Position numbers and translations under genes: made by a program. This document shows, piece by piece, positions 3,369 to 56,578 of a DNA stretch of 56,578 bases. Origin of the DNA: a bacterium (GTDB lineage Bacteria > Hinthialibacterota > Hinthialibacteria > Hinthialibacterales > Hinthialibacteraceae); assembly GCA_963663405.2 (NCBI GenBank), contig CAXXSM010000111.1, forward strand, positions 1 through 56,578, written 5' to 3'. Position 1 is the first letter of the stretch; every line of letters starts with the position of its first letter. A model generated the notes under the pieces. That model saw only the letters and a list, made by a program, of their open reading frames with translations, was not told where the DNA came from and made no database searches.

Positions 3369-4797
3369 ATGAAACGCTATTACTTTGTAATCCCATGGTT
3401 ATGTGTCCTGAGCGCTCCATTCGCCTTGGCGTTGGATATCACGCCGGTGTGGGAACATACGCTGATCGACGGTGGCGATGTTCTTCCGATTCTCGTCAAT
3501 GGTCCGGAAGATCCACGCTGGGATGGGGATCCTGAAGACGCCCCGTGGTATGGAATCAATCTTCACGATCAATACGATGGTTTTATTCGTTATGATGAGA
3601 ATCGTCTGATGCTGGGGATCCGGGACAATGGCATCGATGAAACCGATCCCGATCATGACGCTGCATTGGCCGCTCAGTATCCAGACCGTTCGATTCTCTG
3701 GATCGATCCCAATGACGGCTCTCCCCTTGGCGTCGCGATCCATGTCGGCTTCAAACCTGTTGAATTATCGGAGGAATACGAATCCATGATCGATGGCGGC
3801 TCCGGCGATCCCGCCATCGAAGGATGGGGCGATCCAAAAAACCGCCGCTTCGTTTCCGGCGAACAAAGCGCCCCGGAATACATGAATTTTGATGTCTCCG
3901 ATGATGGTGTAATCTACTTGGGCTACTGGTACATGATCCTCCGGTGGGATCCGGATGGCGCTGGTGGATTTACTGGCCCAACAATCGCGTACGAACACGA
4001 TTATCGTAACCACGGAGGAAACTGACAGACTCTCTCAATGGCGTTTCGGCGATATCGAGGTCCAGGGATCCGGCGCAAACACAGTCGTCATTACATCCGG
4101 GAAAACTTGGCGGAATGGAATGCGGATCCGTGTGTTTGACGTGGACGCCACGACCAATACATGGACAATCCGTGGAGATTATGGCGAAACGAAAAACGGT
4201 TGCTTCGGAGGAACTGGCGGTGTGAGTGTCCCTGTTACCGATAGTTTTGGTGACGAGATGATTTATATGGGAAGCAATGTGTCTGGTCATGGGATGAGCC
4301 GTTACGTTTGGACCGGCGATACTTATGAAGAAGATGCCGAAGAACTCTTCAATCCCGCTGCTCCCGAAGGCTCTGACGGATGGAATCACGCCATCCCAAC
4401 CAAATGGGCCAGTGACATCGCCACGCATCAGGACTTGGATTACATTCTTGCCGCTTCATCCCCCAGCTGGAATGGACAATCAAACGCCAATGAAATCGAC
4501 AAACCCGGCTTTATCACGGCGTATTCCATTGTTGGCGAAGAGCCAGTCGGCGAGTTTCTCGGCGATGTCATCTTTGGAAGCACAAAAGAAAGACCTCCCG
4601 TCGAGTCCGATGAGCCTTCCGCCGCATCCAGCGCCGCCGCGACTTGGAACGCGATTATGAGCCAGATCAAACTCTATCGCGCGTCTGATTATGAAGATGG
4701 CGCGTGCGAAATCCTTTACCTAAATCAAGTCTATGGCTACGGCCGTTATGTCATTGGCAATATTGACACTTCCATCGACCAATGGCCGCTCTATTAA
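3369..4797 (+). CDS. Secreted acidic protein with C-terminal W-x-L-Y motif; one frameshift near 3995-4010
   Basis: Signal peptide MKRYYFVIPWLCVLSAPFALA; AGGAG RBS. ORFs 3369..4025 and 3955..4797 overlap in different frames with the same D/G/W-rich composition. Ends TSIDQWPLY. Confidence 0.7.
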
Positions 4798-4826
4798 TCG
4801 AATAGAATTTTTCGTTAAATGACTTT

Positions 4827-4854
4827 ATGGGGCGTTTCCGGACGCCCCATTTTT
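4827..4854 (+). terminator. Rho-independent terminator
   Basis: ATGGGGCGT-ttccgg-ACGCCCCAT stem followed by TTTT, 30 nt after stop 4797. Confidence 0.75.
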
Positions 4855-4903
4855 CCTCCTCCCACTCGAATCCGACTCAACCTTACCCCCTCATTTTTCG
4901 TCA

Positions 4904-4960
4904 TTAATGAAGTGGGCTTTTCGCCCGTGATTGATGGAGCGCAGGCGTCCCGCCCGTGAA
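4904..4960. repeat. REP-like palindromic repeat family A (degenerate + intact tandem copies)
   Basis: TTGATGGAGCGCAGGCGTCCCGCCCGTGA (4931-4959) is preceded by the degenerate TTAATGAAGTGGGCTTTTCGCCCGTGA; an inverted copy lies at 8889-8919. Confidence 0.7.
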
Positions 4961-5000
4961 AAGAAGAGTCAATGAATAAGGAATTCCAAAATGATAATAC

Positions 5001-5046
5001 ACATCCTTAAAATCCTTTCATCTTGGATATCCGGATTCAGACAAAA
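5001..5046 (-). repeat. Dispersed ~46 bp repeat family B
   Basis: Reverse complement TTTTGTCTGAATCCGGATATCCAAGATGAAAGGATTTTAAGGATGT aligns without gaps to 20195-20240. Confidence 0.75.
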
Positions 5047-5161
5047 TAGTGAATGATCGTCGAATTCACGTCATATCAGTTTATAATATGTTTTGTTTAT
5101 GAGATCACTGGGAAAATTATTAATTCACCCATAATCAGAATAAAACAAAAAGGACAAACCA

Positions 5162-6001: not shown

Positions 6002-6080
6002 CCAGATACGTGATGGAGTATTTCATCCTTCGTTTTTGCGAAGTACAATAGAGTCAACATCTTTGAGGAAAGGTAGAAAA

Positions 6081-6686
6081 GTGAGAGAAAAATCTTTTAC
6101 GTTAATCGAATTATTGATTGTCGTCGCGATTATCGGGATTCTCGCAGCGATCGCGGTTCCAAATTTCATGAACGCGCAGATTCGGGCGAAGATTGCGCGT
6201 GTGGCGGGAGATATGCGTAACATCGGTGTCGCCTTCGGCGCGTATTCCGTCGATCACAACGATTACCCACTGGGTATCATCACATTTCTCAGTCCACGGG
6301 AGAGGGATAGCTGGGGATTTTTACCCGAATGTCTGACAACCCCTGTCGCGTATTTAACAAGCCTGCCCGTCGACGAATTCAATCTGGATTACAAAATATA
6401 CGGTAATTCTGAAGGAACCGGCCCCTCTAGCAAAAGCGATCCACACGCGCGATATCGAACCGCCCGCCGCAAACCGTTTGGCGGCTCCAACGAAGGATGG
6501 ACAGCCAGCTGGAAAGCCATGCTGGCTGACACCGGCATCGACGGTGAGTATATTCTCACCAGTCCCGGTCCGGATAAAGTCGAGGATATACTCCCCGCCT
6601 ACAACCCACATCCTTACGCGACAAGCAACGGGCTGCTTAGTTCTGGAGATGTTGTATACTGTCCGGGCGGTCTGGCGGGAATATAA
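6081..6686 (+). CDS. Prepilin-type (GspG/type IV pilin-like) protein
   Basis: GTG start after GAGGAAAGG; S|FTLIELLIVVAIIGILAAIAVP; NAQIRAK, LTTPVAY, SPGPD, SNGLLSSGDV. Confidence 0.9.
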   Translation: MREKSFTLIELLIVVAIIGILAAIAVPNFMNAQIRAKIARVAGDMRNIGVAFGAYSVDHNDYPLGIITFLSPRERDSWGFLPECLTTPVAYLTSLPVDEFNLDYKIYGNSEGTGPSSKSDPHARYRTARRKPFGGSNEGWTASWKAMLADTGIDGEYILTSPGPDKVEDILPAYNPHPYATSNGLLSSGDVVYCPGGLAGI

Positions 6687-6690
6687 AAAT

Positions 6691-6826: not shown

Positions 6827-7894
6827 ATGATAATGCGAATGAGTATTCTTTGTATGGTGTCTCTAATCGCGTTCGACGCGTCCGCTCAAACCCTGGTGGA
6901 GGATTTATACACGTCGGATGGTGACCACTCCCCGATCTCTCTGGTTGGCGGGCAGAAATGCGCTCAGCGGTTCACCGCTACGCTGCCGTTTGAAGGTATC
7001 CAAGTCAATGGCCCTACGTGGAGCGTCAGCGGAGAGAAAGGCCTTACGATCCGCCTGTACGAATGGGCGGGCAGTTACAGCGCCACCATCGTGCAAGATC
7101 CGATTACCGTAAGTGTCTTGGTTGACCTGACGGATAACGACTGGTGGCCCTGTTACGCTGGTTCAGAACTGCCTCCCGGTGAATACATGTGGGAAGCGTC
7201 CGAACCGACCAACTCGAATCCAGAAGCGGACAATCCCCACCAGATCGGTTGCTGGTTGGAGAATGGCAGCAAATACACAGGCGGCGAGGCCTATTTCAAC
7301 GGCGAACCGTATGGGGAGGTAGCCGTCGAATGGAAACGGGTTTATTCAGAAGCGCAGAGCGATGATGATTGGTATCCCTTCCCGTTTTCCGGCGCGGATA
7401 ATCCAACGCTCGCCCAGAGTTTCACGTTCCCGAGTGAATCGATTCCTGACGTCGACGCGTTCCAAGCAGTTGGAATCGCCAGTCCCACATGGAATGGCTC
7501 CGGCGCAGGATACCGGATGGTTCTATACAAATGGGATACGGATTACGACACAACCGTCGCTGGCACGCCCATCGCGGAGGAAACCTTTTCCAACATATCC
7601 GACAACGCCCGTAATGAACTGGTCCTCGATTCGCCGTTGGGAGAAGGGAAATACCTTGTTTTCACCGATCAACCTGTTCTCGGAAGCAATAACAGCGTCG
7701 GCCATTGGGGGTGGAACAATTCGCTCTGGTGGGATGATGAAAACGCCGCGTACCAGGATGGTGTGGAAATCGAGACAGGCGCCAGCTTCGATCTATTTCT
7801 CGGCGTGCCCAGTGAAGAAGTCGTAGGGAAAGACTTCGCTTCCCGAACAGTCACAGGCGTCGCTACAGCGGTTAACCACTGGGAATTGTATTAA
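6827..7894 (+). CDS. Secreted protein with two related beta-rich domains and C-terminal W-x-L-Y motif
   Basis: Signal peptide ending ASA. Internal duplication (AQRFT...GPTW...IRLYEW...LTDN versus AQSFT...SPTW...MVLYKW...ISDN). Ends TAVNHWELY. Confidence 0.8.
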   Translation: MIMRMSILCMVSLIAFDASAQTLVEDLYTSDGDHSPISLVGGQKCAQRFTATLPFEGIQVNGPTWSVSGEKGLTIRLYEWAGSYSATIVQDPITVSVLVDLTDNDWWPCYAGSELPPGEYMWEASEPTNSNPEADNPHQIGCWLENGSKYTGGEAYFNGEPYGEVAVEWKRVYSEAQSDDDWYPFPFSGADNPTLAQSFTFPSESIPDVDAFQAVGIASPTWNGSGAGYRMVLYKWDTDYDTTVAGTPIAEETFSNISDNARNELVLDSPLGEGKYLVFTDQPVLGSNNSVGHWGWNNSLWWDDENAAYQDGVEIETGASFDLFLGVPSEEVVGKDFASRTVTGVATAVNHWELY

Positions 7895-8022: not shown

Positions 8023-8134
8023 GTCGATGGAACGATCCTCTCGAAAGCCTTCTATATAGGGTTGGGAAGGAATTGTATACTTCATCTGACTTATCGATTA
8101 CACAGATTTCTCAAACCAAAACAAAGGCTTGGTG

Positions 8135-8827
8135 ATGAATTTACAATGTCTTCGCGCTTTAAAAAACAAGCGTCTGATCGAGATTCTCATTGTAATTATC
8201 GTCCTCATCCTTCTCCTTTTCCTATCTGTTCCTACGTTTTTAAAGGCGCAGATCCGTGCGAAACTGGCGTTAGTCAAAACGCAGTTTGAGGAAATCGGGA
8301 AAGCGATGGAAGCGTACCGGGCCGATTCGGAGATCTATCCCGCCGGATTCGCCCCCATCCCCATCGCTTGGATTGGGAAGAACCATTATTGGCAAAAGCA
8401 GTTAACCACGCCCACTCCGTATCTCACTCTTGAAACTATGATTCAACGTGATTTCTATCCGGAAGAGCGCGTTTCGGGAATCAGTGGAAAAGCGTTTCCA
8501 CGCAACGAGTGGAAACCACCGATCACTTACGGAGCCGTTACAAGTACATTTTTTTTGAATCCCTTTACAATCCAGCGTCTCCTGAAGAAAGACGCCGAAC
8601 AATGGTGGATTCTCTTCTCCTGCGGCCCGGACCGGATCGACACAAAAATCGCCAATGGCTGGGGGGGCGGAGGCCGTTTCCTCTACGATCCCTCAAACGG
8701 GCTTCTTTCTGAAGGTGACATCGTTCATGCGGGAGGGATAGAACATGACACTCGTTACGGCGTCCTTTGGGATCCTAATATCCCCGAAGAAGAACGAAAA
8801 CCCGGTCGCGTTCCCTGGTGTCCTTGA
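8135..8827 (+). CDS. Divergent GspG/pilin-like protein lacking a canonical prepilin cleavage site
   Basis: KRLIEILIVIIVL... in place of GFTLIELL, but retains AQIRAK, LTTPTPY, SCGPD and YDPSNGLLSEGDI. Confidence 0.8.
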   Translation: MNLQCLRALKNKRLIEILIVIIVLILLLFLSVPTFLKAQIRAKLALVKTQFEEIGKAMEAYRADSEIYPAGFAPIPIAWIGKNHYWQKQLTTPTPYLTLETMIQRDFYPEERVSGISGKAFPRNEWKPPITYGAVTSTFFLNPFTIQRLLKKDAEQWWILFSCGPDRIDTKIANGWGGGGRFLYDPSNGLLSEGDIVHAGGIEHDTRYGVLWDPNIPEEERKPGRVPWCP

Positions 8828-8888
8828 TCAATACATAATACTTTTCGCTGATCGTGCAATCGATAGAATGATAGGATAGAATATTTAT

Positions 8889-31401: not shown

Positions 31402-33213
31402 ATGCGTTTTCGCCTTTCTTCTCCCCAGAAGACCTTTGTACGACTCGTTATTCTCGTTGGTTTCATCATTGTCATTGGCTATGATTTAGCCTCCACACTC
31501 CAAAACACATCTTCAACCGAAGCCATCCCCGTTTCTCAATTGATCGATGACGGTGTCCCGCCGGATTATACAACGAAAGTCTCTTTTATCCGGTCGGATG
31601 ATTCTTGTCTGAGCAATCCCGTCCCGCTTGATGAGGAACTCACCCTCGAACAGTATATCGATATGGTATACGCGCTTCTCGATATGTCAGGTGAACTCAC
31701 TCCGCTTCTGTTCGAAGGCGCTCACGTCGTCATAAAACCGAACGTTGTGGAGTTCGCTGAACTGGGCAATGGTGTTAATACCGATCCCCGCATGATCGAA
31801 GGTCTGATCCGATGGATGGAAGACCGGGGGCCGGATGGTTTGCAATACACTGTCGCTGAAGCGGCGGGGGGTTGGATTTCCAGCGAGATGCGGCATACGA
31901 AATACTACTCCAGCGGCACGTCGGGCGATGGATACCGGGAAGCGGGATACACCGATATGCAGCAGCGCCTTGCCGATGATGGAATCACCATGGATATCGT
32001 CGACGCCAATTTCGGTTCGTACGATAATCCTCTTGAAGGCATTCGCTACGTCCCGGTTCCTGAATGGATTGATTTTCCCGAAGCCAGCGGATACTGGGTT
32101 CACGAAGTCCTCCTCAATGCCGACGTGTTGATCAATACGCCGGTAATGAAAATACACAATCCCCAAATTACAGTTTGTCTTAAGAACTACATCGGCATCG
32201 CCGCCGGTGCGAAATATGGCACCTATAAAGGTGTCGGCGGACCGGATCCAGGCGATCCCCGTCTTCACAAAGACTATCCCACGCGCAACTCGGTCGAAAA
32301 AGAGATTGTCGATCTGGCTTCTCTCGCGCCCGCTGATTTTTCTCTCGTCGACGCCGTGATTTGTAAAGAACGGGCCAAGACCGCCTCCTCTCCCTCCGTG
32401 CGTAGAAATATGATGATCGCCGGTACCGATATGGTCGCGATCGATACAATCTGTTCGCTGCTGATGGGACTCAATCCCGATGACGTTTCCCATCTCTATA
32501 CCGCCGCCCGTGAAGGATTCGGTACGATGGATTTGGATCGTATCACCGTTGAAGGGGAACATACAATCGAAGAATCAGCCTATTATTTCGTACGCACCCC
32601 GCAAGGCGATTCGGGAAACCGGGGACATTTCGGCATGAGCAACCGGATCTGGCTGCTCAACGCCGCTTCAGGAACCGATATCGATACGTCGTACCTGAGT
32701 GTGCCCGACGCGGAATTGATCGGTATCCCCGGCTCGGATGGTTGGACGGAACCGATTCAGTTCTCAGATGATATCATCGACTTCGAAGCCTATTACGGCG
32801 CGACAAACGATAACGTCTATTACGCCTTCAGCTGGCTCACGGTTCCAGAAGAACAGGACGCCGAATTGTGGATCTCTCATGACGAATCCTGCGCCGTTTG
32901 GATCGGCGGTGAGCAAGTCTACTACAAAAAAGTTCGCTATCAAGAAACGGCGTTGCCCGATCAATCTTCTGCAACGATTCATCTAACGGCGGGCCGTCAT
33001 CCAATGATCGTCAAACTGGTTGACACTTCACGGACAGCGCCGTTCGTGTTGAATATCTGCCGCATCCTGCCCGACACGCTCCCGGCGGGAAAAGCGACTT
33101 ATACAAATTTAAGAACCAGTTCAAATTATAGACGCTATGAAGGCACCCGCGTTCTCGGTCTGAAATACGACACCGGAACCGCTTCCACAACCCCAAATTG
33201 GGATCAATACTAA
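31402..33213 (+). CDS. DUF362 domain protein with N-terminal signal/anchor, extra C-terminal beta domain and W-x-x-Y tail
   Basis: VVIKPN, TDP, VAEA, INTPVMKIH, TVCLKNYIG and DMVAID motifs; ends STTPNWDQY. Confidence 0.8.
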   Translation: MRFRLSSPQKTFVRLVILVGFIIVIGYDLASTLQNTSSTEAIPVSQLIDDGVPPDYTTKVSFIRSDDSCLSNPVPLDEELTLEQYIDMVYALLDMSGELTPLLFEGAHVVIKPNVVEFAELGNGVNTDPRMIEGLIRWMEDRGPDGLQYTVAEAAGGWISSEMRHTKYYSSGTSGDGYREAGYTDMQQRLADDGITMDIVDANFGSYDNPLEGIRYVPVPEWIDFPEASGYWVHEVLLNADVLINTPVMKIHNPQITVCLKNYIGIAAGAKYGTYKGVGGPDPGDPRLHKDYPTRNSVEKEIVDLASLAPADFSLVDAVICKERAKTASSPSVRRNMMIAGTDMVAIDTICSLLMGLNPDDVSHLYTAAREGFGTMDLDRITVEGEHTIEESAYYFVRTPQGDSGNRGHFGMSNRIWLLNAASGTDIDTSYLSVPDAELIGIPGSDGWTEPIQFSDDIIDFEAYYGATNDNVYYAFSWLTVPEEQDAELWISHDESCAVWIGGEQVYYKKVRYQETALPDQSSATIHLTAGRHPMIVKLVDTSRTAPFVLNICRILPDTLPAGKATYTNLRTSSNYRRYEGTRVLGLKYDTGTASTTPNWDQY

Positions 33214-34371: not shown

Positions 34372-37300
34372 TTATTGGCAATCTTCCACAATCCCCAATC
34401 CGTCTAATTCCTCGTATACCCAATACGGAACTTCCAGCAAATTCACCTGATCGGTTGTATCAATAATAATCGTAACCGGCAGGTTTGGATTTGCGGAATA
34501 ATCTGGAGGATTCGTAGGACCGTTAGCGATGACAGAATTGTAAATAGTGGAGGCGATTCCCTGATCCCATGAGATATACCCCCCGCTGTCAATCCCATTT
34601 CCACCGATTGTGGGCGTTCCGTTAAACAATAGCATCCAGATCACCGCCTGGATCTCATTATTCGAAGGCGCAAGAGAATCAAACGTGCCAATGCGGTAAT
34701 TCACTAACAGATAATTCACCAACGCAAAATGTCCGGGATAATCAACCAGAGAACAGACCGATGTTTCGGAAGTATAGAGACTCACATTGTCATACCACTT
34801 ACCCAGCTGAATTTTTGTCAACATATCCGCGCACCACGCGGGATAGATCTCGTTCCCTCCCAGCGCCGTTGCAGGGATGAATCGCGCGTCAAAATAACCA
34901 TCATCGACGCCAGGAACATCTGCAGTAGGCCAATACCGCCCGCCCAATCCATCTCCATTCACGAGATAACTCCTGTCAATCGAAACACAATCAAAAGGAT
35001 CGAGTCCATTCTGAGGCGAATAATAAAAATCAGGGCCAATCCGGTTTTGCAGGACAAGAACAGCCGCCCAATCATCGCAGGAGAGATTGTTATTACTGAC
35101 ATCCACATAATCTCCCGCTCCAATACCTATATTGGCGATGAGACTGGAAAGGTTTGATAATTGATTGTTGGAACAATGAAGATCGATGAGAGCAGTACAG
35201 TTCGATACATTCAGGCTGGTTAATTGATTGTCATAACAGAAGAGTGATTCTAACGCGGGATTGCCGGAAACATCCAAACTCTGTAAATTATTCTCTTCAC
35301 AGAGGAGACTGATCAAATCTACGTTTTGGGATACATCTAGAGTCGCTAAATAATTCAATCCACAAATAAGCGATTCCAAATCTCCATTATGAGATACATC
35401 CAAACTGGGTAATTGATTGTTATAACTGTTGAGATCCAATAATAAGGAACAGTGAGAGACATCCAGATTGGTTAATTGATTCTCACTGCAGTCGAAAAAA
35501 GTCAGTCTGGAAGCGCTGGATATATTCAGGCTGGTCAATAGATTGTTATTGCAAAAAATAGTTTCTAAAGCGCTTGAGCCGGGAACAATCAGGCTTGCTA
35601 ACTCATTATTACTGCAGGTAAGATTAGTTAAGGCGGTATTGATGGAGATATTTAAGTTTGTTAATTGATTCCCGCTGCAATTAAAACCATCAATACTTGC
35701 AAAATACTCAATCCCAGTTACATTTTGGATAAATTGATTGGAGCAATTCAGATTTCCAATTTTTGTCACTGCGTCAGTAGCGAGAATAATTCCACCCGGC
35801 GCAACGCCCATGAAATTCTCCACAGCGTTGCGGAAATTCGGATCGGGGAAATTCTCTGGAGTGTTGATATTGCAGGCAAACGGATCCATGCCATTCTGGG
35901 GAAGAATATGAAAATCAAAACCGATCCAATTTTGTAGTGTAATAATATCAATTAAGTCATCGCATGATAGATTATTGTATCTTAAATCAATATAACTCGA
36001 TTTAGTGAAATTAATACTTTTGGCTAGACCAGAAATGTTAGTTAATTGATTGTGGCTACAATTGAAATAATTATAAATTTGATTATCAGAGATTTGAAGG
36101 CTGCTTAATTGATTGGAACTACAATGGAGACTTGTGAGACTTGGCGCGTTTGAAATGTCTAGACTTTTTAATTCATTGATGTAGCAATAGAGTGTTTCCA
36201 ACGCGGTGTTATTCGAGAGATTCAAACTGGGAATTTGATTTTCATTGCAATCGAGATATACCAAAGCAGTATTAAGGCTGATGTCCAGAGTTGTTAGTTG
36301 GTTTTTACCGCATTGGAGCCATTCTAATGCCATGTTATGTGAGACATCCAAGGTTGGTATATGATTGTTCGAGCACGCGAGATGCTGTAAAGAAGTATTG
36401 TGGGATACGTCCAGTCTGGTTAAGTGATTCCCATAGCACCACAGTTCTTGTATACCTGTAAAAAATTGAATTCCTGTCAAATCTGTGATATTTCGATAGA
36501 TACAATCGAGACGGTCCGTCTTCGCCGCCGCGTCGGTCGCGGTGAAAATCCCCCCCGGAGCGACGCCCATAAAATTCTCCACAGCGCTTCGAAAATTTGG
36601 ATCCGGAAAATTGGTCGCTGTATTAATATTATCACTGGACGCGCACACAAATGGATCCATCCCATTCTGAGGGGAATAACTCAAAATCACACCCCGATTT
36701 TGCAATTCAACAATATCGTCCCAATCATCGCAGGTTAAATTGTTGTATCGTACATCGACGACATCACTTGCTCCTAAACCCAGATTAGCGGCTAGACTCG
36801 AAATATTTGGTAATTGATTGTTATGACAATCTACATAGACGAAATCTGTAACGTTAAGGACATTCAGATTTGATAATTGATTGTCATGGCAAGTGAGATA
36901 CGTTAAAGCGGTATTATTGCATAGATCTAAGCTGGAAAGTTGATTCGTATTGCAATTAAGTCCTTCAATACCGCTAAAATATTCAATTCCGGACGCAGAA
37001 AGTATATTTTGACTTGCGCAATCCAAATTACCCGCCTTAGCGCCTGCATCATAGGCAGTGATAATTCCATCCGGAGACACTCCCATAAAACTTTCCAGCG
37101 CACGTCTGAAATTTTGATCGGGGATATGAATAGGTGTGTTGATATTGCAATCAAATGGATACAAACCATTCTGTGGAGAATAATGAAACCGGTAATGTAC
37201 AATCCGTTTTTTTAAAGCAAAAATATCAGCCAAATCATCACAGTCTAAATTATTGTAACTTATATCAATATAATCACTACCTTGAAGACCTGGATTGGCG

Positions 37301-39240
37301 ATTAGACTTGAAATACTTATTAATTCATTGTGATAGCAACTCAAGTTTTCTAAAGCAGTGTTGTTTGAGACATTCAGACTGGTTAATCCATTATTATAGC
37401 AGTAAAGATATATCAAAGCTATGTTGTGAGAGATATCTAGGCTTGTAAGTTGGTTATATTCGCATCGCAGAAGTTCTAAGAGCGTATTCTGAGAGACATC
37501 TAGGCTTGTTAACTGATTGTTATTGCATAAAAGAGTGACTAAAGAAGTAGCGCTACTGACATTTAGGCTGGATAATTGATTGTTATAGCATTGGAGAAAA
37601 GTCAAAGCCACATTCTGCGAGAGATCCAAACTGGTTAATTGATTATTGTTGCAGAAAATCTCCTGTATCCCAGTAAAAAACTCGATACCAGTCATATCAG
37701 TAATATTATCGTATTCACAGTCGATTCTCCCTGTCTTCGACGCCGCGTTGGTCGCGGTAAAAATCCCTCCCGGAGCGACGCCCATAAAATTCTCCACAGC
37801 GCTTCGAAAATTTGGATCTGGAAAATTGGTCGCTGTATTAATATTATCACTGGACGCGCACACAAATGGATCCATCCCATTCTGAGGGGAATAACTCAAA
37901 ATCACACCACGATTTTGCAATGCGATAATATCATCCCAATCATCGCAGGTTAAATTGTTATATCTGACATCAACTTCATCTCCCGATCCCAACCCAGGGT
38001 TGGCAGTCAGACTTGAAATACTGATGAGTTGGTTATTGAGGCAGGATAATCGTTTCAAAAATGGATTGTTCATAACGTCTAGGCTGTTTAAATGATTTTG
38101 AGAGCAGAACAATCGTTCCAATAATGAATTATTTGAAAGATCCAAACTGGTTAATTGATTGCTAAAGCAGGATAGGAAATTCAAAGCCAGATTCTGCGAG
38201 ACATCCAAATCCGTTAATTGATTCCCATAGCAGGAAAGTTCTTCTAAAGCGGTGGCATTCGAGACATCCAAGCTGGTCAATTGATTCCCAAAACAGTCGA
38301 GATCCAGTAAAGCGGGATTATTTGATATATTAAGATATGTTAATTGATTTTGGTAGCAATAGAGAGTTTCTAAGGCTGTGTTTTTAGATACATCTAAACT
38401 GGTTAATTGATTGCGATAGCAGTAAAGCAAATCGATCCCGGTAAAATACTCGATACCGGTCATGCTGCTAATATTATGAAAACAGCAGATAAAATGATCT
38501 GTCTTCACCGCCGCTTCAGTGGCGGTAAAAACACCACCGGATACCACCCCCATATACTCTTCAACAAAATCCCGAAACTGTGGATCTGGAAAATTCGTCG
38601 CTGTATTGATATTGTCTATCGCCGCGCAATAAAAGGGATCCATCCCATTCTGCGGGGAATAATTTACAATCACGCCCCGGTTTTCAAGGGTTAGAATATT
38701 TCTCCAGTCATCACAGGTCAGATTGTTGTATCGTAGATCCACTTCATCACTTGCTTCTAAAATCGGCGAAGCGATAAGACTGGTAATATCTGTTAATTGA
38801 TTGTTATTACATTTCAGATTCGTTAAACTGGATGCGCCTGCGATCACTAAACCGCCGATCTGATTCCAACTGCAATCGATTTGGATCAAATCGGACGCGT
38901 TCGAAATATCCAGGTAGGTCAATTGATTGTTACTGCAATCAAACGCTTCCAGGCTGGAGAAATATTCGATTCCAGTTACGGCGCCGATCGTTTGACTGGC
39001 GCAATCCAAAGTCCCCGTCATCGCCGCTGCTTCAGTCGCGGTAAACACGCCCCCTGGAGCGACGCCCATAAAACTCTCAACACAACTCCGGAAATTCGCA
39101 TCTGGAAAATTGGCCGCTGTGTTGATGTTGATCTGCGCGATGGATGGATTGATCATAATTACGCTGAATAATGATAACAAAAGTATGATTGTTACGTTTC
39201 TAGAATGCTTGAAATAGAGGTATCTATCCACAATAGACAT
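34372..39240 (-). CDS. Large secreted internalin-like LRR protein (six capped LRR modules) with C-terminal thioester-domain-like region
   Basis: Signal peptide; six NINT..[NH][FI]PD..FR caps, LxxLxCxxNQLTSLDVS repeats, PQNG[ML]xPF closers; C-terminal AWCAD...IQAVIW...DQVNLL. Confidence 0.9.
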   Translation of the reverse strand: MSIVDRYLYFKHSRNVTIILLLSLFSVIMINPSIAQININTAANFPDANFRSCVESFMGVAPGGVFTATEAAAMTGTLDCASQTIGAVTGIEYFSSLEAFDCSNNQLTYLDISNASDLIQIDCSWNQIGGLVIAGASSLTNLKCNNNQLTDITSLIASPILEASDEVDLRYNNLTCDDWRNILTLENRGVIVNYSPQNGMDPFYCAAIDNINTATNFPDPQFRDFVEEYMGVVSGGVFTATEAAVKTDHFICCFHNISSMTGIEYFTGIDLLYCYRNQLTSLDVSKNTALETLYCYQNQLTYLNISNNPALLDLDCFGNQLTSLDVSNATALEELSCYGNQLTDLDVSQNLALNFLSCFSNQLTSLDLSNNSLLERLFCSQNHLNSLDVMNNPFLKRLSCLNNQLISISSLTANPGLGSGDEVDVRYNNLTCDDWDDIIALQNRGVILSYSPQNGMDPFVCASSDNINTATNFPDPNFRSAVENFMGVAPGGIFTATNAASKTGRIDCEYDNITDMTGIEFFTGIQEIFCNNNQLTSLDLSQNVALTFLQCYNNQLSSLNVSSATSLVTLLCNNNQLTSLDVSQNTLLELLRCEYNQLTSLDISHNIALIYLYCYNNGLTSLNVSNNTALENLSCYHNELISISSLIANPGLQGSDYIDISYNNLDCDDLADIFALKKRIVHYRFHYSPQNGLYPFDCNINTPIHIPDQNFRRALESFMGVSPDGIITAYDAGAKAGNLDCASQNILSASGIEYFSGIEGLNCNTNQLSSLDLCNNTALTYLTCHDNQLSNLNVLNVTDFVYVDCHNNQLPNISSLAANLGLGASDVVDVRYNNLTCDDWDDIVELQNRGVILSYSPQNGMDPFVCASSDNINTATNFPDPNFRSAVENFMGVAPGGIFTATDAAAKTDRLDCIYRNITDLTGIQFFTGIQELWCYGNHLTRLDVSHNTSLQHLACSNNHIPTLDVSHNMALEWLQCGKNQLTTLDISLNTALVYLDCNENQIPSLNLSNNTALETLYCYINELKSLDISNAPSLTSLHCSSNQLSSLQISDNQIYNYFNCSHNQLTNISGLAKSINFTKSSYIDLRYNNLSCDDLIDIITLQNWIGFDFHILPQNGMDPFACNINTPENFPDPNFRNAVENFMGVAPGGIILATDAVTKIGNLNCSNQFIQNVTGIEYFASIDGFNCSGNQLTNLNISINTALTNLTCSNNELASLIVPGSSALETIFCNNNLLTSLNISSASRLTFFDCSENQLTNLDVSHCSLLLDLNSYNNQLPSLDVSHNGDLESLICGLNYLATLDVSQNVDLISLLCEENNLQSLDVSGNPALESLFCYDNQLTSLNVSNCTALIDLHCSNNQLSNLSSLIANIGIGAGDYVDVSNNNLSCDDWAAVLVLQNRIGPDFYYSPQNGLDPFDCVSIDRSYLVNGDGLGGRYWPTADVPGVDDGYFDARFIPATALGGNEIYPAWCADMLTKIQLGKWYDNVSLYTSETSVCSLVDYPGHFALVNYLLVNYRIGTFDSLAPSNNEIQAVIWMLLFNGTPTIGGNGIDSGGYISWDQGIASTIYNSVIANGPTNPPDYSANPNLPVTIIIDTTDQVNLLEVPYWVYEELDGLGIVEDCQ
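36518..36755. repeat. Intragenic near-identical ~240 bp duplication (partner at ~37733..37970)
   Basis: Long identical stretches such as GGAAAATTGGTCGCTGTATTAATATTATCACTGGACGCGCACACAAATGGATCCATCCCATTCTGAGGGGAATAACTCAAAATCACACC at both sites, 1215 bp apart. Confidence 0.9.
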
Positions 39241-39600: not shown

Positions 39601-41121
39601 TTATTGACAATCCCCCACAACCCCCAAACCATCTAATTCCTCATACACCCAATACGGAACTTCAAGCAAATTTACCTGATCAGTTGTGTCGATGATAATC
39701 GTAATCGGCAGATTTGGATTATCCATATAATCAGGAGGATTCGCTGGTCCGTTGGTCATTACGGAATTATAAATTATGGACGCGATTCCCTGATCCCATG
39801 AAATATATCCCCCACTGTCAATCCCATTTCCACCGATACTGGGCGTTCCATTAAACAATAGCATCCAGATCACCGCCTGGATCTCATTATTGGAAGGCGC
39901 AAGAGAATCAAACGTGCCAATACGGTAATTCACCAACAGATAATTCACCAACGCAAAATGTCCGGGATAGTCAACCAGAGAACAGACCGATGTTTCGGAA
40001 GTGTAGAGACTCACATTGTCATACCACTTCCCCAGCTGAATGTCTGTCAACTTATCCGCGCACCATGCGGGATATGTTTCTTCTCCCCCCAACGCTGTCG
40101 CGGGAACAAACCGCGCATCGAAATACCCATTAATGCTTGGCCAATACCGCCCCCCCAATCCATCCCCATTCACGAGATAACTCATGTCAATCGATCCGCA
40201 CTCAAATGGATCCAAATTATTCTGTGGAGAGTAATAAAAACGGGAGCCAATTCGATTTTGTAGTACCTGAATAGTAGCCCAGTCATCGCAAGATAGATTA
40301 TTATTCCTAACATCTGCTCTTCCGATCCGTGTACACGCGATCAAACTAGAAATGTTCGTTAATAGATTGTCTGAACATAGTAGTGTCCTTATAACTTTAT
40401 TATGCGAGACATCAAGACTGGTTAATTGGTTGTTGAAACATTCGAGAGTAATTAAAGCGGGAACATTAGACAAATTTAGGTTGGTTAGTTGGTTGTTGTC
40501 GCAATATAGAAATCTTAAAGCAGGCATGTTAGAGAGATCGAGATTCTTTAATTGGTTGAAACTGCAATGTAGTTTATCGAGAACGGGATAATTATCGGTG
40601 AAATTAAGGTCTGTTAATTGATTGTAAGAACAATTAAAAAAACTTAAATAGGTAGCGTCAGGGATAGTAAGGCTTTTTAATTGATTTAAAGAACAGTCAA
40701 GAGAACGTAAATGGTTAGCGTTAGGGATGGTAAGGCTTTTTAATTGATTATTCTCGCACTTGATTCTATTCAATTTAGTATTGTGCGAGAGATCCAAATG
40801 TTCAATTTGGGTATAATTGAAATATAACGTAAGCGTGCCGGTAAAAAATTCAATGCCGGTTGCATTCTTAATATTAGGATTATAGCAGGAGAAGGGCCAA
40901 TAATTCGCCGCCGCTTCTGCGGCAGTAAAAGCGCCTCCTCGACGGACACCCATATAATTCTCCGCTGCTTCGCGGAAATACGGATCTGGAAAATTCTCTT
41001 CTGTATTAATGTTCTGCGTAAAAGAGAGATCGGCCATACACACGCATAGCAGAGCCACCGATACCGCCATGAAAATCCTGCGGCGATTGCGTTGAAAGAC
41101 ATTATTTTCTATATTCGGCAT
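39601..41121 (-). CDS. Single-module LRR paralogue with the same C-terminal thioester-domain-like region
   Basis: GAGGAG RBS before ATG 41121; one LRR module; last ~200 aa nearly identical to those of 34372..39240. Confidence 0.9.
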   Translation of the reverse strand: MPNIENNVFQRNRRRIFMAVSVALLCVCMADLSFTQNINTEENFPDPYFREAAENYMGVRRGGAFTAAEAAANYWPFSCYNPNIKNATGIEFFTGTLTLYFNYTQIEHLDLSHNTKLNRIKCENNQLKSLTIPNANHLRSLDCSLNQLKSLTIPDATYLSFFNCSYNQLTDLNFTDNYPVLDKLHCSFNQLKNLDLSNMPALRFLYCDNNQLTNLNLSNVPALITLECFNNQLTSLDVSHNKVIRTLLCSDNLLTNISSLIACTRIGRADVRNNNLSCDDWATIQVLQNRIGSRFYYSPQNNLDPFECGSIDMSYLVNGDGLGGRYWPSINGYFDARFVPATALGGEETYPAWCADKLTDIQLGKWYDNVSLYTSETSVCSLVDYPGHFALVNYLLVNYRIGTFDSLAPSNNEIQAVIWMLLFNGTPSIGGNGIDSGGYISWDQGIASIIYNSVMTNGPANPPDYMDNPNLPITIIIDTTDQVNLLEVPYWVYEELDGLGVVGDCQ

Positions 41122-41440
41122 AAGTATCTCCTCTAACAATACTCTTTTTCCTCCATTCGCCCCCCAAAACCAATGGACGGATAATTGAAAAAAAAGAGAT
41201 AGGAACGCTTCCAAGGGAATAGAATAACAAAATGAATTGTACATCAATAATTATATGTTGAGTAGGCGTATACTATTTAAATAGTGGTTAAAATTTCACG
41301 AGATTTGCCTCTCGATTGGGGAAAGGAAAAGTATTGCTTGATAGGGATTGAAAATTGAAATGGTGTGGTGCAAAATTGCTTGGAGATCAATTCTTTTCTT
41401 CTGTATTACTCTAAAATTGTGAAAATCAGAATTCTCCCCC

Positions 41441-41863
41441 CTAAAACTGCCGCTCAAAATGCTTCGGATTATACTCCTCCTTCGACCGGTCGATCCAGTA
41501 AGACTGGGCGTCTTTGGAAAAATTCCGATCGAGCGCGTCGCGACGAGTTAGTTTTTGGAATAAAGAGATGGGTGTGAAGATACAATAGAACAGAATCGAG
41601 AGGATAATCCGCGCATTGATCCATCCCAGCAGCTTTGCGAACCGCATCCACCCTTTGTGGATAGGCCGCAGCGCGGCCGGCGCGATCAGGCCGGGCAGCA
41701 GAAATACAATCCCCGCGATCCCCCAGAAGATATAAACCATCGTCCAATGCTGCCGCCAGACGCCGATCAAACTGATCAACGTTATCGCGATCGCCATCAC
41801 AATCCCAAACTTCCGGAGTTCTTTATCACTTAATTGAGGGGGCGCTTTCTTAGTCAAGTTCAA
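41441..41863 (-). CDS. SxtJ family membrane protein
   Basis: LRKFG, WMRFAKLLGWINARIIL, FTP, SYW; overlaps the carbamoyltransferase stop. Confidence 0.85.
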   Translation of the reverse strand: MNLTKKAPPQLSDKELRKFGIVMAIAITLISLIGVWRQHWTMVYIFWGIAGIVFLLPGLIAPAALRPIHKGWMRFAKLLGWINARIILSILFYCIFTPISLFQKLTRRDALDRNFSKDAQSYWIDRSKEEYNPKHFERQF

Positions 41864-43667
41864 ACTCCTTCTGCCAGTCGATATCGTCTTTCAATTCCGG
41901 CTGCTCTTTTTTATCCAATATACAGCGTCCGAGAACGAGGTAATCCATCTCGGTCCGCATGAAACAGGTATACGCGTCTTTCGGCGCGCAGACGATCGGC
42001 TCGCCGCGCACATTGAAGGATGTATTCACCAACACCGCGCAGCCGGTCTTCTCTTCGAACGCCGCGATCAGATCGTAATACCGTGGATTATCCACCCGCT
42101 TCACCGTCTGCACCCGCGCCGAATAATCGACATGCGTCACGGCTGGAATATCCGAGCGCGGCACATTCAGTTTATCAATCCCGAACAGTTTTTTCTGTTC
42201 CTCCGTCATCGGAATATGGCGGGATTCCTTCACCGGAGCCACAAGCAGCATATAAGGCGATTCCACATTGATATCAAAATACTCGCTCACCTTCTCCGCC
42301 AGCGCAACCGGCGCGAAAGGACGGAACGATTCGCGGTATTTAATCTTCAAATTCATCTTCGATTGCATCTTCGGCGAGCGCGCGTCACCAAGAATACTGC
42401 GCCCGCCCAACGCCCGTGGCCCGAATTCCATCGGCCCCTGGAACCAGCCCACGACATTTTCATCAATCAAGATCTGCGCCACAGTGGGAGTGAGTTCTTC
42501 TTCCGTCAGCGTGGTATAAGGCACGCCCAATTCATCGAGAAACGCCTGGCATTCCTCATCCGAATATTCCGGACCCAGCAGCGCCGCGTTCATCAGATCG
42601 CTTCCATTCTTCGAAGGAAGGGGATTGTCCGCATAGCGGTGATAAACGCTTAACGCCACACCCAGCGCGCCGCCCGCGTCCCCCGCCGCTGGTTGAATCC
42701 AGATCGATTCGAACGGCCCATCCCGCAGGATCTTCCCATTTGACACACAATTCAGCGCCACGCCCCCGGCGAGGCATAGATTCTTTAATCCGGTTTCTTT
42801 ATGAACGTGACGCGCCATGCGCATCATCGCCATCTCCGTCACGTCCTGCACGGATCGCGCCAGATCCATCTCACGCTGCCCCAGCCGCGTCTCCGGCTTG
42901 CGGGGCGGTCCCCCAAACAATTGATCGAACTTCGAATTGGTCATTGTCAATCCGGAAAGATAGTTGAAGTAATCCATATTGAGCCGGAACGAGCCGTCTT
43001 CCTTCAAATCGATCAGCTTATCCAGAATCGTCTGGGTATACTTCGGTTCCCCATAGGGAGCCAGCCCCATCACTTTGTATTCCCCCGAATTGACCTTGAA
43101 TCCGGTGTAGTATGTAAACGCCGAATAGAGCAGTCCCAGCGAGTGCGGGAACTTCGTCTCCCCCAGAATTTTGATCTCCTGCTCTTTGCCGTACCCAAAC
43201 GTCGTCGTCGACCATTCGCCCACCCCGTCAATGGTCAAAAACGCGGCTTCCTGATAGGGCGATGGATAAAACGCGCTGGCCGCGTGGCTCTCGTGATGGT
43301 CGCCGAAGAGGATCTTTCCTTCATAATCCATCGCGTCCCGGATCACTTTCGGTAGCCATAGTTTCTCTTGAATCCAGAGCGGGATCGCCATGATAAACGA
43401 CCGGATCCCCGCAGGCGCCACCGCAAGATACGTCTCCAGAATGCGTTCGAATTTCACAAACGGCTTGTCGTAGAACGCCACGTAATCGATTTCATCCGCC
43501 GCAATGCCCCCCCGCTTCAAGCAGGCCTCGATCGCGTTCGCTGGGAACGAGGCGTCGTGTTTCTTCCGTGTAAACCGTTCTTCCTGCGCGGCGGCGGCGA
43601 TCTTCCCATCGCGCACGAGGCAGGCGGCGCTGTCGTGGTAGAAAGCGGATATGCCTAGTATATTCAT
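41850..43667 (-). CDS. Carbamoyltransferase (NodU/CmcH family)
   Basis: MNILGISAFYHDSAA, EERFTRKKHD, HHESHAASAF, DGVGE, GEYKVMGLAPYG, EFGPRALG, NTSFNVRGEPIV. Confidence 0.95.
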   Translation of the reverse strand: MNILGISAFYHDSAACLVRDGKIAAAAQEERFTRKKHDASFPANAIEACLKRGGIAADEIDYVAFYDKPFVKFERILETYLAVAPAGIRSFIMAIPLWIQEKLWLPKVIRDAMDYEGKILFGDHHESHAASAFYPSPYQEAAFLTIDGVGEWSTTTFGYGKEQEIKILGETKFPHSLGLLYSAFTYYTGFKVNSGEYKVMGLAPYGEPKYTQTILDKLIDLKEDGSFRLNMDYFNYLSGLTMTNSKFDQLFGGPPRKPETRLGQREMDLARSVQDVTEMAMMRMARHVHKETGLKNLCLAGGVALNCVSNGKILRDGPFESIWIQPAAGDAGGALGVALSVYHRYADNPLPSKNGSDLMNAALLGPEYSDEECQAFLDELGVPYTTLTEEELTPTVAQILIDENVVGWFQGPMEFGPRALGGRSILGDARSPKMQSKMNLKIKYRESFRPFAPVALAEKVSEYFDINVESPYMLLVAPVKESRHIPMTEEQKKLFGIDKLNVPRSDIPAVTHVDYSARVQTVKRVDNPRYYDLIAAFEEKTGCAVLVNTSFNVRGEPIVCAPKDAYTCFMRTEMDYLVLGRCILDKKEQPELKDDIDWQKEFELD

Positions 43668-53710: not shown

Positions 53711-54051
53711 TTATGCGCTTTTAATGTGCTTGGAAGAATGAATCAATGTATTGAAGGAGAGATTTTAAATCATCATTTATGAATCAAAAAAACAAGATTC
53801 GTTGGACATTAAGGATAGGTGGTATAGGATAGGTAAAACTTTATCTGTTTAAAATTCCTCCAATATTTTTGCCTCTCTAAAACTTTGATGACATTAGCTT
53901 TCACAGAAGCATTGAGTAAGAAAAAAAAAATCGATCTTTCCCTATACAAAATCATATAACCTTTGCTATTCTATATATGGTTTTATGAATTTTCGTAGGT
54001 ATTGATGAATATTAAGCGGCAAATCATGTAAAAATGGAGGTGTGATTAATA

Positions 54052-54901
54052 ATGGTAAGAAGTAAAAGATCAACCAATATAGACTCCAATCCTACACCAA
54101 AAATCTTTAATCCAACGAAATTGATACAGGAATACAACAAATTAATCAAGCAAAACAAGAAAGCAATTAATTTAATAGCTTTTGGCGACTCCTGGTTATC
54201 GTTCCCCAGGCAGAAATACACTTACAGAATTGATGAATATTGGTGACTATAACGTTATTAAGCGAGTCGAAAGTGGAGAAGAAGCGATCAATTTGTTAAG
54301 TGGACAAGAGAAATTCGATTTCATTGAAGTAATAGAAAAATGTTCTGCGCAAATCATATTGTTTTCTGGTGGTGGGAACGATATTGTTGGGCGTTATGAT
54401 TTTGAATTATTTCTTCAAAAGTCTAAATCTCAAGAATCATTCCACAAATATCTATGTTTTGATCGAATTAAAAGACGGCTTAATCAGATTGAAAATGCTT
54501 ATCGAGATTTGGTCGATTACACTCTTACTTTCTCAAAAAGTAGAAGAACAATAAAAATCGTAACTCATTCGTATGATTATGCTTATCCAAGAAATAAAGG
54601 TGTTGATTTATAAAACACCCTTTGGGAAAATTGTACTAGCCGGCCCCTGGATGTATCCATATTTAGAAAGAAACAATATTCCAAAAAAATTCCATAAACG
54701 AATAGTTTGAATTTTTTGATTGATTCCTTTGCAGATAGGTTGTATAAAATTCAAAAGGACTTTCCTGATAGATTTTATATTGCTCAGACTCTCGATACGC
54801 TGGAAGAAAAAGATTGGCAGGATGAACTCCATCCAACAGATGAAGGCTTTAAAAAAATTGCAGAAAAAGTCCATATCTGTATAAAACGAGCGTTAGGCTG
54901 A
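54052..54901 (+). CDS. SGNH/GDSL hydrolase, AT-rich, frameshifted
   Basis: Block I AFGDSW, block III SGGGND, block V WQDELHP across ORFs 54052..54246, 54182..54613 and 54707..54901; GGAGG RBS. Confidence 0.8.
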
Positions 54902-54954
54902 TTTGTACAAAGCGCGAATATCCTCCCTACTCGTATACTCTAAACCATTACTTT

Positions 54955-55120
54955 TGGCTCAAATCCATTGGGATCATCTTCGGCATGGGGCCGTCCATGA
55001 AATACACGGGCTACTCAGAATTCACCTTCGGCGTCGCCTTCATCCCCTATGAGCCTTCAAACGGATTGATGAGCCTGGGAATCATACGCCGCTACGTCCC
55101 CCGGCAAACCGAAAGTATGA
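54955..55120 (+). repeat. Direct repeat copy 2 (orphan pilin 3' end)
   Basis: Encodes WLKSIGIIFGMGPSMKYTGYSEFTFGVAFIPYEPSNGLMSLGIIRRYVP(+C)GKPKV-stop with no 5' gene body. Confidence 0.95.
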
Positions 55121-55187
55121 TTGCGAATATGAGTGTTGCGCGGAATGTAAATGAATTTTTTTAGAGAAGAAAATAAAGGTTTCAATC

Positions 55188-55320
55188 TTTTTTATCTGAA
55201 TCTGGATAGCCGTGATGATTAATATATTCAGGATAGGCGTCATCAAAGTGGAAACCTTAATTGAATTGAGTCAAAATCCTGTCCATCCTTCAATCCTGAT
55301 TATCAAGATTCATACAAAAA
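55188..55320. repeat. Inverted pair of family B repeats (MITE/REPIN-like, ~130 bp)
   Basis: Left arm TTTTTATCTGAATCTGGATAGCCGTGATGATTAATATATTCAGGAT; right arm reverse complement TTTTTGTATGAATCTTGATAATCAGGATTGAAGGATGGACAGGAT. Confidence 0.65.
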
Positions 55321-55384
55321 AATAGGATAGGCCAACATTAACCTACCCTATTCAATTTCAAGCGACACGAAAACCAATCAATTT

Positions 55385-56578
55385 CTAATACAACGCCCAC
55401 TCCTCAACAGAAACATCAAACGGCGCGCTATAATGCGCAATGATCCGCTCTTCCGAAAGCGCGATATCGTAGATAGCCACTTCATCGATATAACCGTTGA
55501 AATTATCTCCCTGATCGGAACCGCCGATGTGCAACTCATTCCCATCACCGATCGCCGCTTGACCCGCTTGCGTATCCATAAGTTCCCCATCTAGATACAC
55601 CCGCATTTCCGGTACCGAATTATCATACACAAAGACCGCGTGATACCATTGATCGGTCTGATTGGGAACCGTCGTTGCCGGGCGGGTGGAATATTCCGAG
55701 AAATATTCCAATTGTTCGGGATTGTAAGCGTAGATCATAGCCTGCTGCGTGTTGCCCGCTCGGCGGAAACAGCAGGTAGGATTGAGAACTGAGACCGATT
55801 GGATTCATCCATAGTTCATAGGTGAACGATTCAAAGGGATACAGAGCCTCCGCTTCGTAACTGGAAATCCGCCCACTCAGCGCGTAATTGGATGGATCTT
55901 TCGGACCGGTCACATAACGCACGCCGCTGGGAAGCAAGTCGTAGAGTCCCATTTCATCATTGAAATCATCCTCAAACCGCCAGTACACCTTCGGTTCATC
56001 CGCCAGAACCGCGGCGGGATAGTCATCCGGAAACGCGGCGTTGTAATGCGCCTCAATCTGTTCGGCCGTAAGCGCGTGTGTATAAATGGCTATTTCATCG
56101 ATTTCTCCATTAAACACATTCTCTCCGATCGCCGTCCGGGTCGCTCCGATATAGATCTCTTCATCATGACCAGGAAGGATAAACTCAAGATAACTCTCTT
56201 GCCGGCTCACTTCCTGACCGTCTAAATAGGCGATGATGGCGGGAATATCTTCATTGTATACAAAAACAATGTGATGCCATCCTTCAGTGTTATCCGGCAG
56301 TTCAATCGACGGGGGTTCAGAGCCGAATTCTTGAAAGGAAGAATAGAATTCCAACTGGTTTTCAGTCATGTTATACACCAAAGAATTTTGACCGCTTCCC
56401 ACCGGCGCGCCCGAACGGCGCATTAACACGTAGGTTCCCCCCTCATTCGAACCGTTCACATTGATCCACATTTCATAAGTGTAGGAAATCAGATCAAAGA
56501 GCTCGATCGCTCCAAACGACGCCGCCCACGCCTGGCCTCCATTGGTGGAAAACGCTTGCGTTCCAGAACCTGGGCCGC
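55385..56578 (-). CDS. LamG/concanavalin A-like tandem domain protein with C-terminal W-x-L-Y motif; 5' end outside the window, one frameshift near 55770
   Basis: WHHIVFVY, YLDG, FNGEIDEIAIY, and again WYHAVFVY, YLDG, FNGYIDEVAIY; ends VSVEEWALY; frame open to the right edge. Confidence 0.85.

Follow-up and report, generated by a model that had tools for sequence, protein, structure and literature searches.

The 56,578-nt contig C111 (CAXXSM010000111.1 of GenBank assembly GCA_963663405.2), which is analysed here in its entirety and called the window, encodes four proteins with unrelated bodies but a common C-terminal tail of nine to ten residues, and the same tail closes about 170 proteins (169 in the count of gene neighbours), or roughly 2.5% of the proteome, of this Hinthialibacterota (OLB16) bacterium. 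As judged from sequence comparison, the tail is under protein-level selection across the whole of this small phylum, and it probably serves as a sorting or localisation tag for exported proteins, one that lacks a membrane helix and would act after the Sec or Tat step.

The C-terminal tail in the genome and in the window

The source genome (8.44 Mb in 170 contigs, 82% complete) was represented by 6668 non-overlapping open reading frames (ORFs) of at least 90 amino acids, obtained by crude longest-ORF calling. The pattern [VIT]xxWx[LVIM][YFH] was found exactly at the C-terminus of 129 of these 6668 ORFs versus 0.46 expected from its 159 internal occurrences in 2.32 million positions, an excess of ∼280-fold. 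Over the last 12 positions, tryptophan was the most enriched residue, and this at position −4 alone (280 ORFs, 2.55-fold background). An iterated 12-column position matrix yielded a bimodal score distribution, with 144 ORFs scoring at least 12 versus none of 33,340 random internal windows, and in about 20 additional proteins one or two polar residues come after the motif. The informative positions were −9 (T/V/S), −7 (V/I), −5 (D/N), −4 (W), −2 (L/V/I/M) and −1 (Y/F/H), giving the consensus [T/V/S]-x-[V/I]-x-[D/N]-W-x-[L/V/I/M]-[Y/F/H] at the C-terminus or at most two residues from it; the matrix further held S, E, M or A at position −3, and the last residue among the 144 ORFs was Y in 81, F in 29 and H in 28.

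The DNA encoding the tail had a median identity of just 47%, and besides T-runs no conserved DNA motif was found 3′ of the stop codon; therefore, the conservation lies at the protein level and the tail is not a DNA repeat. Those T-runs were ∼3-fold enriched directly downstream of tailed genes, and TAA was used as the stop codon in 97 of 148 tailed genes versus 1689 of 3672 other ORFs of at least 250 amino acids (odds ratio 2.2, p = 3e-6), a bias that may stem from high expression alone or from selection against read-through, which would bury the tag.

In the window, the four C-termini proved to be as an earlier note on this DNA had given them: DTSIDQWPLY ending at 4797 (+), ATAVNHWELY at 7894 (+), ASTTPNWDQY at 33213 (+) and DVSVEEWALY at 55385 (−). 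That note had also described N-terminal signal or anchor peptides on three of the four proteins and non-homologous bodies, and both descriptions agree with the present analysis, in which the fourth protein extends past the contig end and the bodies have no Pfam family in common (two without any, one with DUF362, one with LamG repeats). The tailed genes and their tails are as follows.

3369..4797, + strand: tailed protein 1, ∼475 amino acids, with signal peptide MKRYYFVIPWLCVLSAPFALA, no Pfam family and tail DTSIDQWPLY
4765..4797, + strand: tail 1, 10 codons and stop
6827..7894, + strand: tailed protein 2, 355 amino acids, with signal peptide, no Pfam family and tail ATAVNHWELY
7862..7894, + strand: tail 2, 10 codons and stop, found by both DNA patterns described below
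31402..33213, + strand: tailed protein 3, 603 amino acids, with N-terminal membrane anchor, DUF362 domain and tail ASTTPNWDQY
33181..33213, + strand: tail 3, 10 codons and stop
55385..56578, − strand: tailed protein 4, with repeated LamG (Laminin_G_3) domains and tail DVSVEEWALY
55385..55417, − strand: tail 4, stop and 10 codons

The matrix scores of tails 1 to 4 were 17.2, 26.6, 5.4 and 22.0, respectively, tail 2 being the closest of the four to the genome-wide consensus, and all other scored ORFs of the window were negative. Tail 3 deviates by T at −7 and Q at −2; its score of 5.4 was reached by 13 of 66,680 internal control windows versus 163 of 6668 real C-termini, and a similar ending, TPNWEIY, closes an esterase elsewhere in the same genome, so tail 3 is probably a weak, divergent member. 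The assembly has frame breaks, which split some tailed genes into separate ORFs. Tailed gene 1 is split here into ORFs 3369–4025 and 3955–4797 (break region 3955–4025), and its orthologues in all seven relatives fetched are a single ORF of 472–481 amino acids with signal peptide and tail; tailed gene 4 has a break near 55623–55738 (ORFs 55385–55738 and 55623–56578), and its N-terminus lies beyond the contig end.

Exported bearers, conserved orthologues and distribution across the phylum

The association with export, which the earlier note had drawn from the window alone, extends to the whole genome: a hydrophobicity heuristic predicted signal-peptide-like N-termini for 121 of 144 tailed ORFs versus 2380 of 6500 others (odds ratio 9, p = 6e-31). 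For 12 of the 23 tailed ORFs that lack a signal peptide, an ORF starting with one abuts upstream in a different frame; two more lie at contig edges, which leaves nine. Internal transmembrane helices were found in only three of 144 tailed ORFs versus 857 of 6500 others, a lipobox in one of the 144, and a Tat-like RRNFLNK motif on one tagged sulfatase. By this heuristic, about one in ten soluble exported proteins is tailed (169 versus 1534 untagged).

The bodies bearing the tail are highly diverse. The 148 proteins scoring at least 10 fell into 65 groups without BLAST similarity between their bodies, and the 60 residues preceding the tail into 90 unrelated groups; nothing is conserved in register upstream of about −10, and the linker between the last strand of the preceding domain and the tail consists of a few residues rich in P, E and G. 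Among 44 members scanned with Pfam, just over half had no family at the thresholds used, and the others included sulfatase, GH5 cellulase, esterase, pectinesterase-like beta-helix, FGE-sulfatase, CotH kinase with lamin-tail domains (LTD), LamG, CBM9, LRR, and WD40 and NHL propellers. This cargo is typical of secreted or surface proteins, and the phylum has been inferred to degrade complex polymers (PMC9324843). Within enzyme families the tagging is selective: the tail was found on 2 of 27 sulfatases, 2 of 37 FGE proteins, 10 of 11 CotH-LTD proteins and all three beta-helix proteins, and on none of 38 GFO/IDH/MocA oxidoreductases.

The claim of the earlier note that the tail belongs to no described C-terminal family withstood the family-library scans: at E values up to 1, no NCBIfam model covered the tail in any of the 24 tailed proteins searched, and in the 44 scanned with Pfam no model covered it either and PF18962 had no hit. 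Likewise, no recurring motif emerged from 74 ORFs of the genome whose C-terminus is a transmembrane helix with a basic tail. The motif was not found in the literature on C-terminal sorting signals and on this phylum, as far as sources outside most subscription journals cover it, and neither 'C-terminal' nor 'secretion system' occurs in the whole text of the paper naming the phylum (PMC9324843). In both of two confident AlphaFold2 models from unrelated families, whose bodies are soluble jelly-roll and beta-helix folds, the tail was not an integral strand: the model of L087 (42-row alignment, mean predicted local distance difference test score, pLDDT, 91.7) has its final strand at residues 465–477 and an average of 51 over the last seven residues, and in that of L109 (21 rows, mean pLDDT 87.2) residues 476–481 are below 50.

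Orthologues at 40–69% identity retain the tail while linkers and bodies drift. It is present in almost all of ∼30 same-clade homologues of L087 (50–64% identity) and, with few exceptions, in the 20 full-length beta-helix homologues, all from the same phylum; tailed gene 2 had matches in 20 of 35 phylum genomes (including the source genome G000), and 16 of the 20 relative loci fetched end in the motif and three in a WxQY variant. Outside the clade, the same bodies end differently. Verrucomicrobia-labelled L087 homologues (P0027, P0032, P0034–P0050) carry, instead of the tail, a C-terminal domain of ∼70–90 amino acids that ends in FYR[VL] or YYRLYRP, has no Pfam model and may be another undescribed C-terminal sorting domain, and the homologue P0054 has a PEP-CTERM-like transmembrane helix with an RRIRK anchor; the L087 body itself weakly matched choice-of-anchor J (26 bits, cut-off 30). 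Similarly, GH5 homologues at ∼60% identity carry a type IX secretion (T9SS) C-terminal domain (CTD; P0119, P0156, P0164) or a dockerin, or end at the catalytic domain, and those of the same phylum end in the tail or its F/Y variants. Choice-of-anchor logic therefore applies to the L087 and GH5 families, in which homologous bodies have other sorting or anchoring modules at the tail's place, as one would expect if the tail were an exchangeable module for secretion or anchoring; the beta-helix family is uninformative on this point because only same-phylum homologues were obtained.

The tail had been proposed to be lineage-specific, and this now applies at the level of the phylum, as its frequency was above control in most of 35 phylum genomes, all of one class, and at chance in 26 others. 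With the DNA pattern V-x-x-W-x-[LF]-Y-stop and its reversal as the control, 46 matches versus 6 were counted in the source genome and 16–43 versus 1–8 in all 19 same-family genomes, which as related genomes are non-independent samples; two other families of the order had 4–19 matches, a further family of the class up to 36, and some lineages of the phylum low counts. The stricter pattern T-x-V-x-x-W-x-hydrophobic-[YF]-stop gave 45, 29, 10, 6 and 18 matches in five genomes versus 0–1 in the control, and in weak lineages four in G026, four in G029, three in G033 and one in G023. In G028, the one stricter-pattern match ends in TGG, no stop, and three WRLY ends appeared under the looser pattern, which is the control level. 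The 26 non-phylum genomes at chance comprise 6 small genomes, 1 single-genome phylum and a 19-genome neighbouring phylum, with the Planctomycetes–Verrucomicrobia–Chlamydiae (PVC) phyla and other large phyla left out of the scan. As to the lineage, close homologues bear the label 'Candidatus Omnitrophota', the group from which OLB16 was separated, and the same-family genome G002 encodes a protein listed at NCBI under Candidatus Hinthialibacter antarcticus. At G015:C7:102853-103257, three tail-pattern matches lie within 400 bp, two of them on the same strand, 58 bp apart and mutually out of frame, and may represent a duplicated or frame-shifted gene end.

Pseudopilin genes beside tailed genes, and other features of the window

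Two pseudopilin genes lie directly upstream of tailed genes in the window, a link absent from the earlier note. The order is pilin, tailed gene 1, an unrelated gene, pilin, tailed gene 2 and a possible degenerate pilin.

2634..3233, + strand: pseudopilin gene of prepilin type (N_methyl); tailed gene 1 follows directly
6075..6686, + strand: pseudopilin gene of prepilin type; tailed gene 2 follows directly, and the two form a conserved operon
8129..8827, + strand: downstream of tailed gene 2, a gene that may be a degenerate pilin-like one, assigned to the pseudopilin family by BLAST single linkage only and without a Pfam match

The genome holds 135 ORFs with a prepilin N-methylation motif (147 by BLAST family), a type II secretion (T2SS) operon with a GspD-type secretin, a GspL/PilM-like protein, GspK, two pseudopilins and GspF, and secretin-family matches at eight loci, i.e. 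at least eight secretin genes. Of the 169 tailed genes, 15 have a pilin gene as direct neighbour on the same strand; the corresponding figures are 42 among 1534 untagged genes for signal-peptide proteins (odds ratio 3.5, p = 2.6e-4) and 85 among 4830 other genes, and 40 of the 147 pilin-family genes are at most three genes from a tailed gene (p = 7e-7). Tailed genes were present in two of six secretin neighbourhoods, about chance, and no ORF with a PDZ match is on the same contig as a secretin gene.

Gene order in relatives gave a further measure of this link. In the L087 orthogroup, a pilin gene lies directly downstream of the tailed gene in G000 and in seven of the nine relative loci fetched; the pilin following the L087 locus of G002 is not the best-hit one, and in G008, where the L087 search gave no orthologue, the orthologous pilin follows a different tailed protein. 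In the orthogroup of tailed gene 2, 14 same-family loci could be assessed, and in 10 of them the orthologous pilin gene lies directly upstream at a distance of −4 to 73 nt; it is downstream in one genome of another family. The pseudopilin link is thus real and concerns a subset of tailed genes; of three orthogroups, two show conserved operons and one none. A complex prediction for L087 residues 27–487 and the globular part of its downstream pilin L121 scored 0.00 with controls not run, and so speaks neither for nor against binding.

The pseudopilins themselves have characteristic ends. L121 and its orthologues (L132–L137), encoded downstream of the L087-type gene, end in PGWSAQ[FY], and those upstream of tailed gene 2 orthologues in SGD[IV]VY.PGG[IL][AS]G[LI]; these differing conserved ends indicate that pilin C-termini are orthogroup-specific and conserved.

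Elsewhere in the window, two LRR proteins at 34372–39240 (−) and 39601–41247 (−) have C-terminal ends of the form VNLLEVPYWVYEELDGLG[IV]V[EG]DCQ, and seven paralogues genome-wide have a homologous C-terminal stretch ending in DC[QS]-stop, which from its sequence is more suggestive of a domain common to these paralogues, with a Cys close to its end, than of a separate tag. At 41441–43667 (−), a gene for an SxtJ-like small membrane protein overlaps a carbamoyltransferase gene, whose homologues were found at 79–82% identity in metagenome-assembled genomes and at 57–70% in many phyla, suggesting horizontal spread.

Interpretation and comparison with known systems

The tail is appended, via a short linker rich in Pro, Glu and Gly, to unrelated soluble proteins exported by Sec or Tat, and we propose that it is a short linear tag that would be read after export by a protein receptor in the periplasm or at the surface, marking the protein for a second step, either outer-membrane passage or cell-surface display. 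With such a receptor-read second sorting step, the role of the tag would be that of the T9SS CTD, dockerins and PEP-CTERM-type anchors. Going by the residue pattern, a two-stranded beta-hairpin, should D/N (−5) mark its turn, would place −9, −7, −4 and −2 on the same side, and we expect the tail to dock as a small hairpin with a hydrophobic face or as an edge strand; this arrangement would explain why exactly −9, −7, −4 and −2 are conserved. The earlier note had suggested a tag for outer-membrane export or surface attachment; this is partly supported, as none of the three outcomes that the note held to refute it was observed (no enrichment among signal-peptide proteins, a match to a described family, a tail built into the fold as a strand) and the tail is specific to the phylum. 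The function itself is what we infer from the cargo types and the modules of homologues. The best candidate reader would be the type II secretion or type IV filament apparatus, favoured because of the T2SS operon, the at least eight secretins, the ∼135–147 pseudopilins and the conserved operons of tailed and pseudopilin genes. A specific link of the tag to pseudopilins or the T2SS is proposed tentatively, and we regard it as doubtful. Rather unlikely, as a still more specific claim, is that the tail represents the first linear, transferable cargo signal of a type II secretion or type IV filament machine, with the hairpin loading folded cargo onto pseudopilins, some of them encoded in the operon of the cargo, and the loaded cargo being expelled via the secretin or displayed on the fibre.

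Several observations weigh against the proposed tag or its coupling to pseudopilins. An adjacent pilin gene exists for only ∼9% of tailed genes, four class-level-family loci of the tailed gene 2 orthogroup have none, and neither has any of seven orthologous loci of tailed gene 1, one of the three orthogroups tested. No receptor was found, and the within-phylum phylogenetic profile gave no clean tail-negative genome, because the weak lineages, when rechecked, still hold a few motif matches. A TIGR04183 search had no match in the genome, yet none in 14 control genomes either, and T9SS machinery was not searched for. Signal peptides were assigned by our own hydrophobicity heuristic instead of SignalP, on the crude longest-ORF gene set. 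Some of the cargo (WD40, LRR) could act in the periplasm, which leaves a location beyond the outer membrane unproven. Moreover, ∼12% of members carry one or two residues past the aromatic and the final residue of the beta-helix family is mostly H, Q, R or K, so the logo overstates how strict the final position is, and a strict PDZ-type reading of a free carboxylate is unlikely.

The tail could alternatively be a surface-retention or docking peptide and no translocation signal, so that the protein would be secreted by another route and then held non-covalently on the cell, by pseudopilin or pilus fibres, lipopolysaccharide or an outer-membrane protein, in the manner of a very small dockerin or of a 'modular pilin' in split form. 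The dockerins and cell-surface anchors at the tail's place in homologues agree with such a role, as do the conserved operons with particular pseudopilins, the pairing of one orthologous pilin with a different tailed protein, and the large share of binding modules (LamG, CBM9, LRR) in the cargo; but 91% of tailed genes lack an adjacent pilin gene, and for a stable anchor an interface of nine residues is small. We consider retention unlikely as the explanation, on data that do not separate it from translocation. Very unlikely is a motif for a periplasmic protease or chaperone that reads C-termini (PDZ HtrA or S41 Ctp/Prc) in maturation, activation or turnover. Ligands of the DegS or Prc type have hydrophobic or aromatic last residues at the extreme C-terminus, as does the tail, most members of which end at the aromatic, and the genome has PDZ matches in about nine ORFs and seven Peptidase_S41 matches. 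Yet conservation extends as far as −9, further than PDZ ligands usually span; ∼20 members have one or two more residues (the 12% above) and in one family the final residue is H, Q, R or K; homologues elsewhere bear secretion or anchoring modules at this place and no protease tags; and no PDZ or S41 gene was linked to tailed genes in the secretin neighbourhoods, where this was examined.

A beta-signal of outer-membrane proteins (OMPs), or an integral strand serving fold completion or strand-swap oligomerisation, would account for the aromatic end and for V, W and L spaced as in a beta-strand, and is nevertheless extremely improbable. Positions −3 and −5 are polar, leaving no alternating hydrophobic pattern, the two Omp85 proteins of the genome end in FSFGQSF and SIGQAF, and the tail is carried by 65 unrelated bodies with soluble jelly-roll, beta-helix, propeller or enzyme folds, by only some paralogues of a family, and unpacked in both models; by the polar positions, soluble bodies, unpacked tails and number of unrelated bodies, this explanation is largely refuted. 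A C-terminal signal for the type I secretion system was rejected because the bearers have N-terminal signal peptides (121 of 144, plus the 12 frame-split genes).

If the cargo-signal reading is true, the long-sought T2SS 'secretion signal' would be legible from sequence in one phylum, and the large pseudopilin gene expansions of that phylum would have a function. The coupling to pseudopilins would offer a handle on how type II and type IV filament machines choose cargo and on the purpose of very large pseudopilin families, and the tag could be used to predict, from sequence alone, which proteins of an uncultured phylum belong to its secretome or surface proteome.

Among pilus and pseudopilus systems, T2SS substrates at the pseudopilus tip, PilY1 with minor pilins and 'modular pilins' with lectin modules provide examples of cargo, and to our knowledge no linear C-terminal tag is known for them. 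The tailed genes, which encode secreted or binding modules, resemble these in forming conserved operons with particular pseudopilins, a likeness known here from the genes, and differ in that most are not beside a pilin gene. The OMP beta-signal read by BamA has in common with the tail the extreme C-terminal position and the aromatic last residue; unlike it, the tail has no hydrophobic −3/−5/−7/−9 pattern and is borne by soluble proteins rather than beta-barrels, and the Omp85 proteins of this very genome end canonically in GQ[SA]F. PTS1 (-SKL) and the cargo-loading peptides of encapsulins are very short C-terminal tags that act in the cytoplasm or in eukaryotic organelles. The tail is similarly linear, uncleavable-looking, about ten residues or fewer in length and presumably read by a dedicated receptor, but it is on proteins already across the inner membrane.

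The closest likenesses are to the T9SS CTD and the CTERM signals. The former is a folded beta-sandwich of ∼70–100 amino acids. Like the CTD (TIGR04183/PF18962; Bacteroidota and relatives), the tail is a lineage-restricted C-terminal signal on unrelated soluble Sec-exported cargo, with many such proteins per genome (glycoside hydrolases, adhesins, very large surface proteins), and the CTD stands at its place in GH5 homologues of a tailed protein; unlike the CTD, its conservation is limited to the last 9–10 residues, which are unstructured in the models. With LPXTG, PEP-CTERM, GlyGly-CTERM and MYXO-CTERM it has in common a short, lineage-restricted C-terminal motif on many unrelated exported proteins, here 144–169. 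Tripartite signals of this kind combine a motif with a transmembrane helix and a cluster rich in Arg, a design that the small sorting signals treated in the Haft preprint (10.1101/2023.06.07.544157) have in common; MYXO-CTERM proteins are described there as requiring the T2SS to reach the surface. VesB, a bearer of GlyGly-CTERM, is described as a surface-associated T2SS effector (PMC13393428). The tail has neither the helix nor an Arg/Lys cluster, the protein ends 0–2 residues past the motif, and no NCBIfam CTERM model matched over it (0 of 24). From its sequence, it thus looks to act like a T9SS CTD or a CTERM signal yet without the folded domain, membrane helix and basic cluster; the C-terminal sorting signals described to date are tripartite motifs anchored in the membrane or else entire folded domains, and a helix-free tag of about nine residues on ∼2.5% of the proteome would be a new post-Sec sorting architecture in a diderm bacterium.

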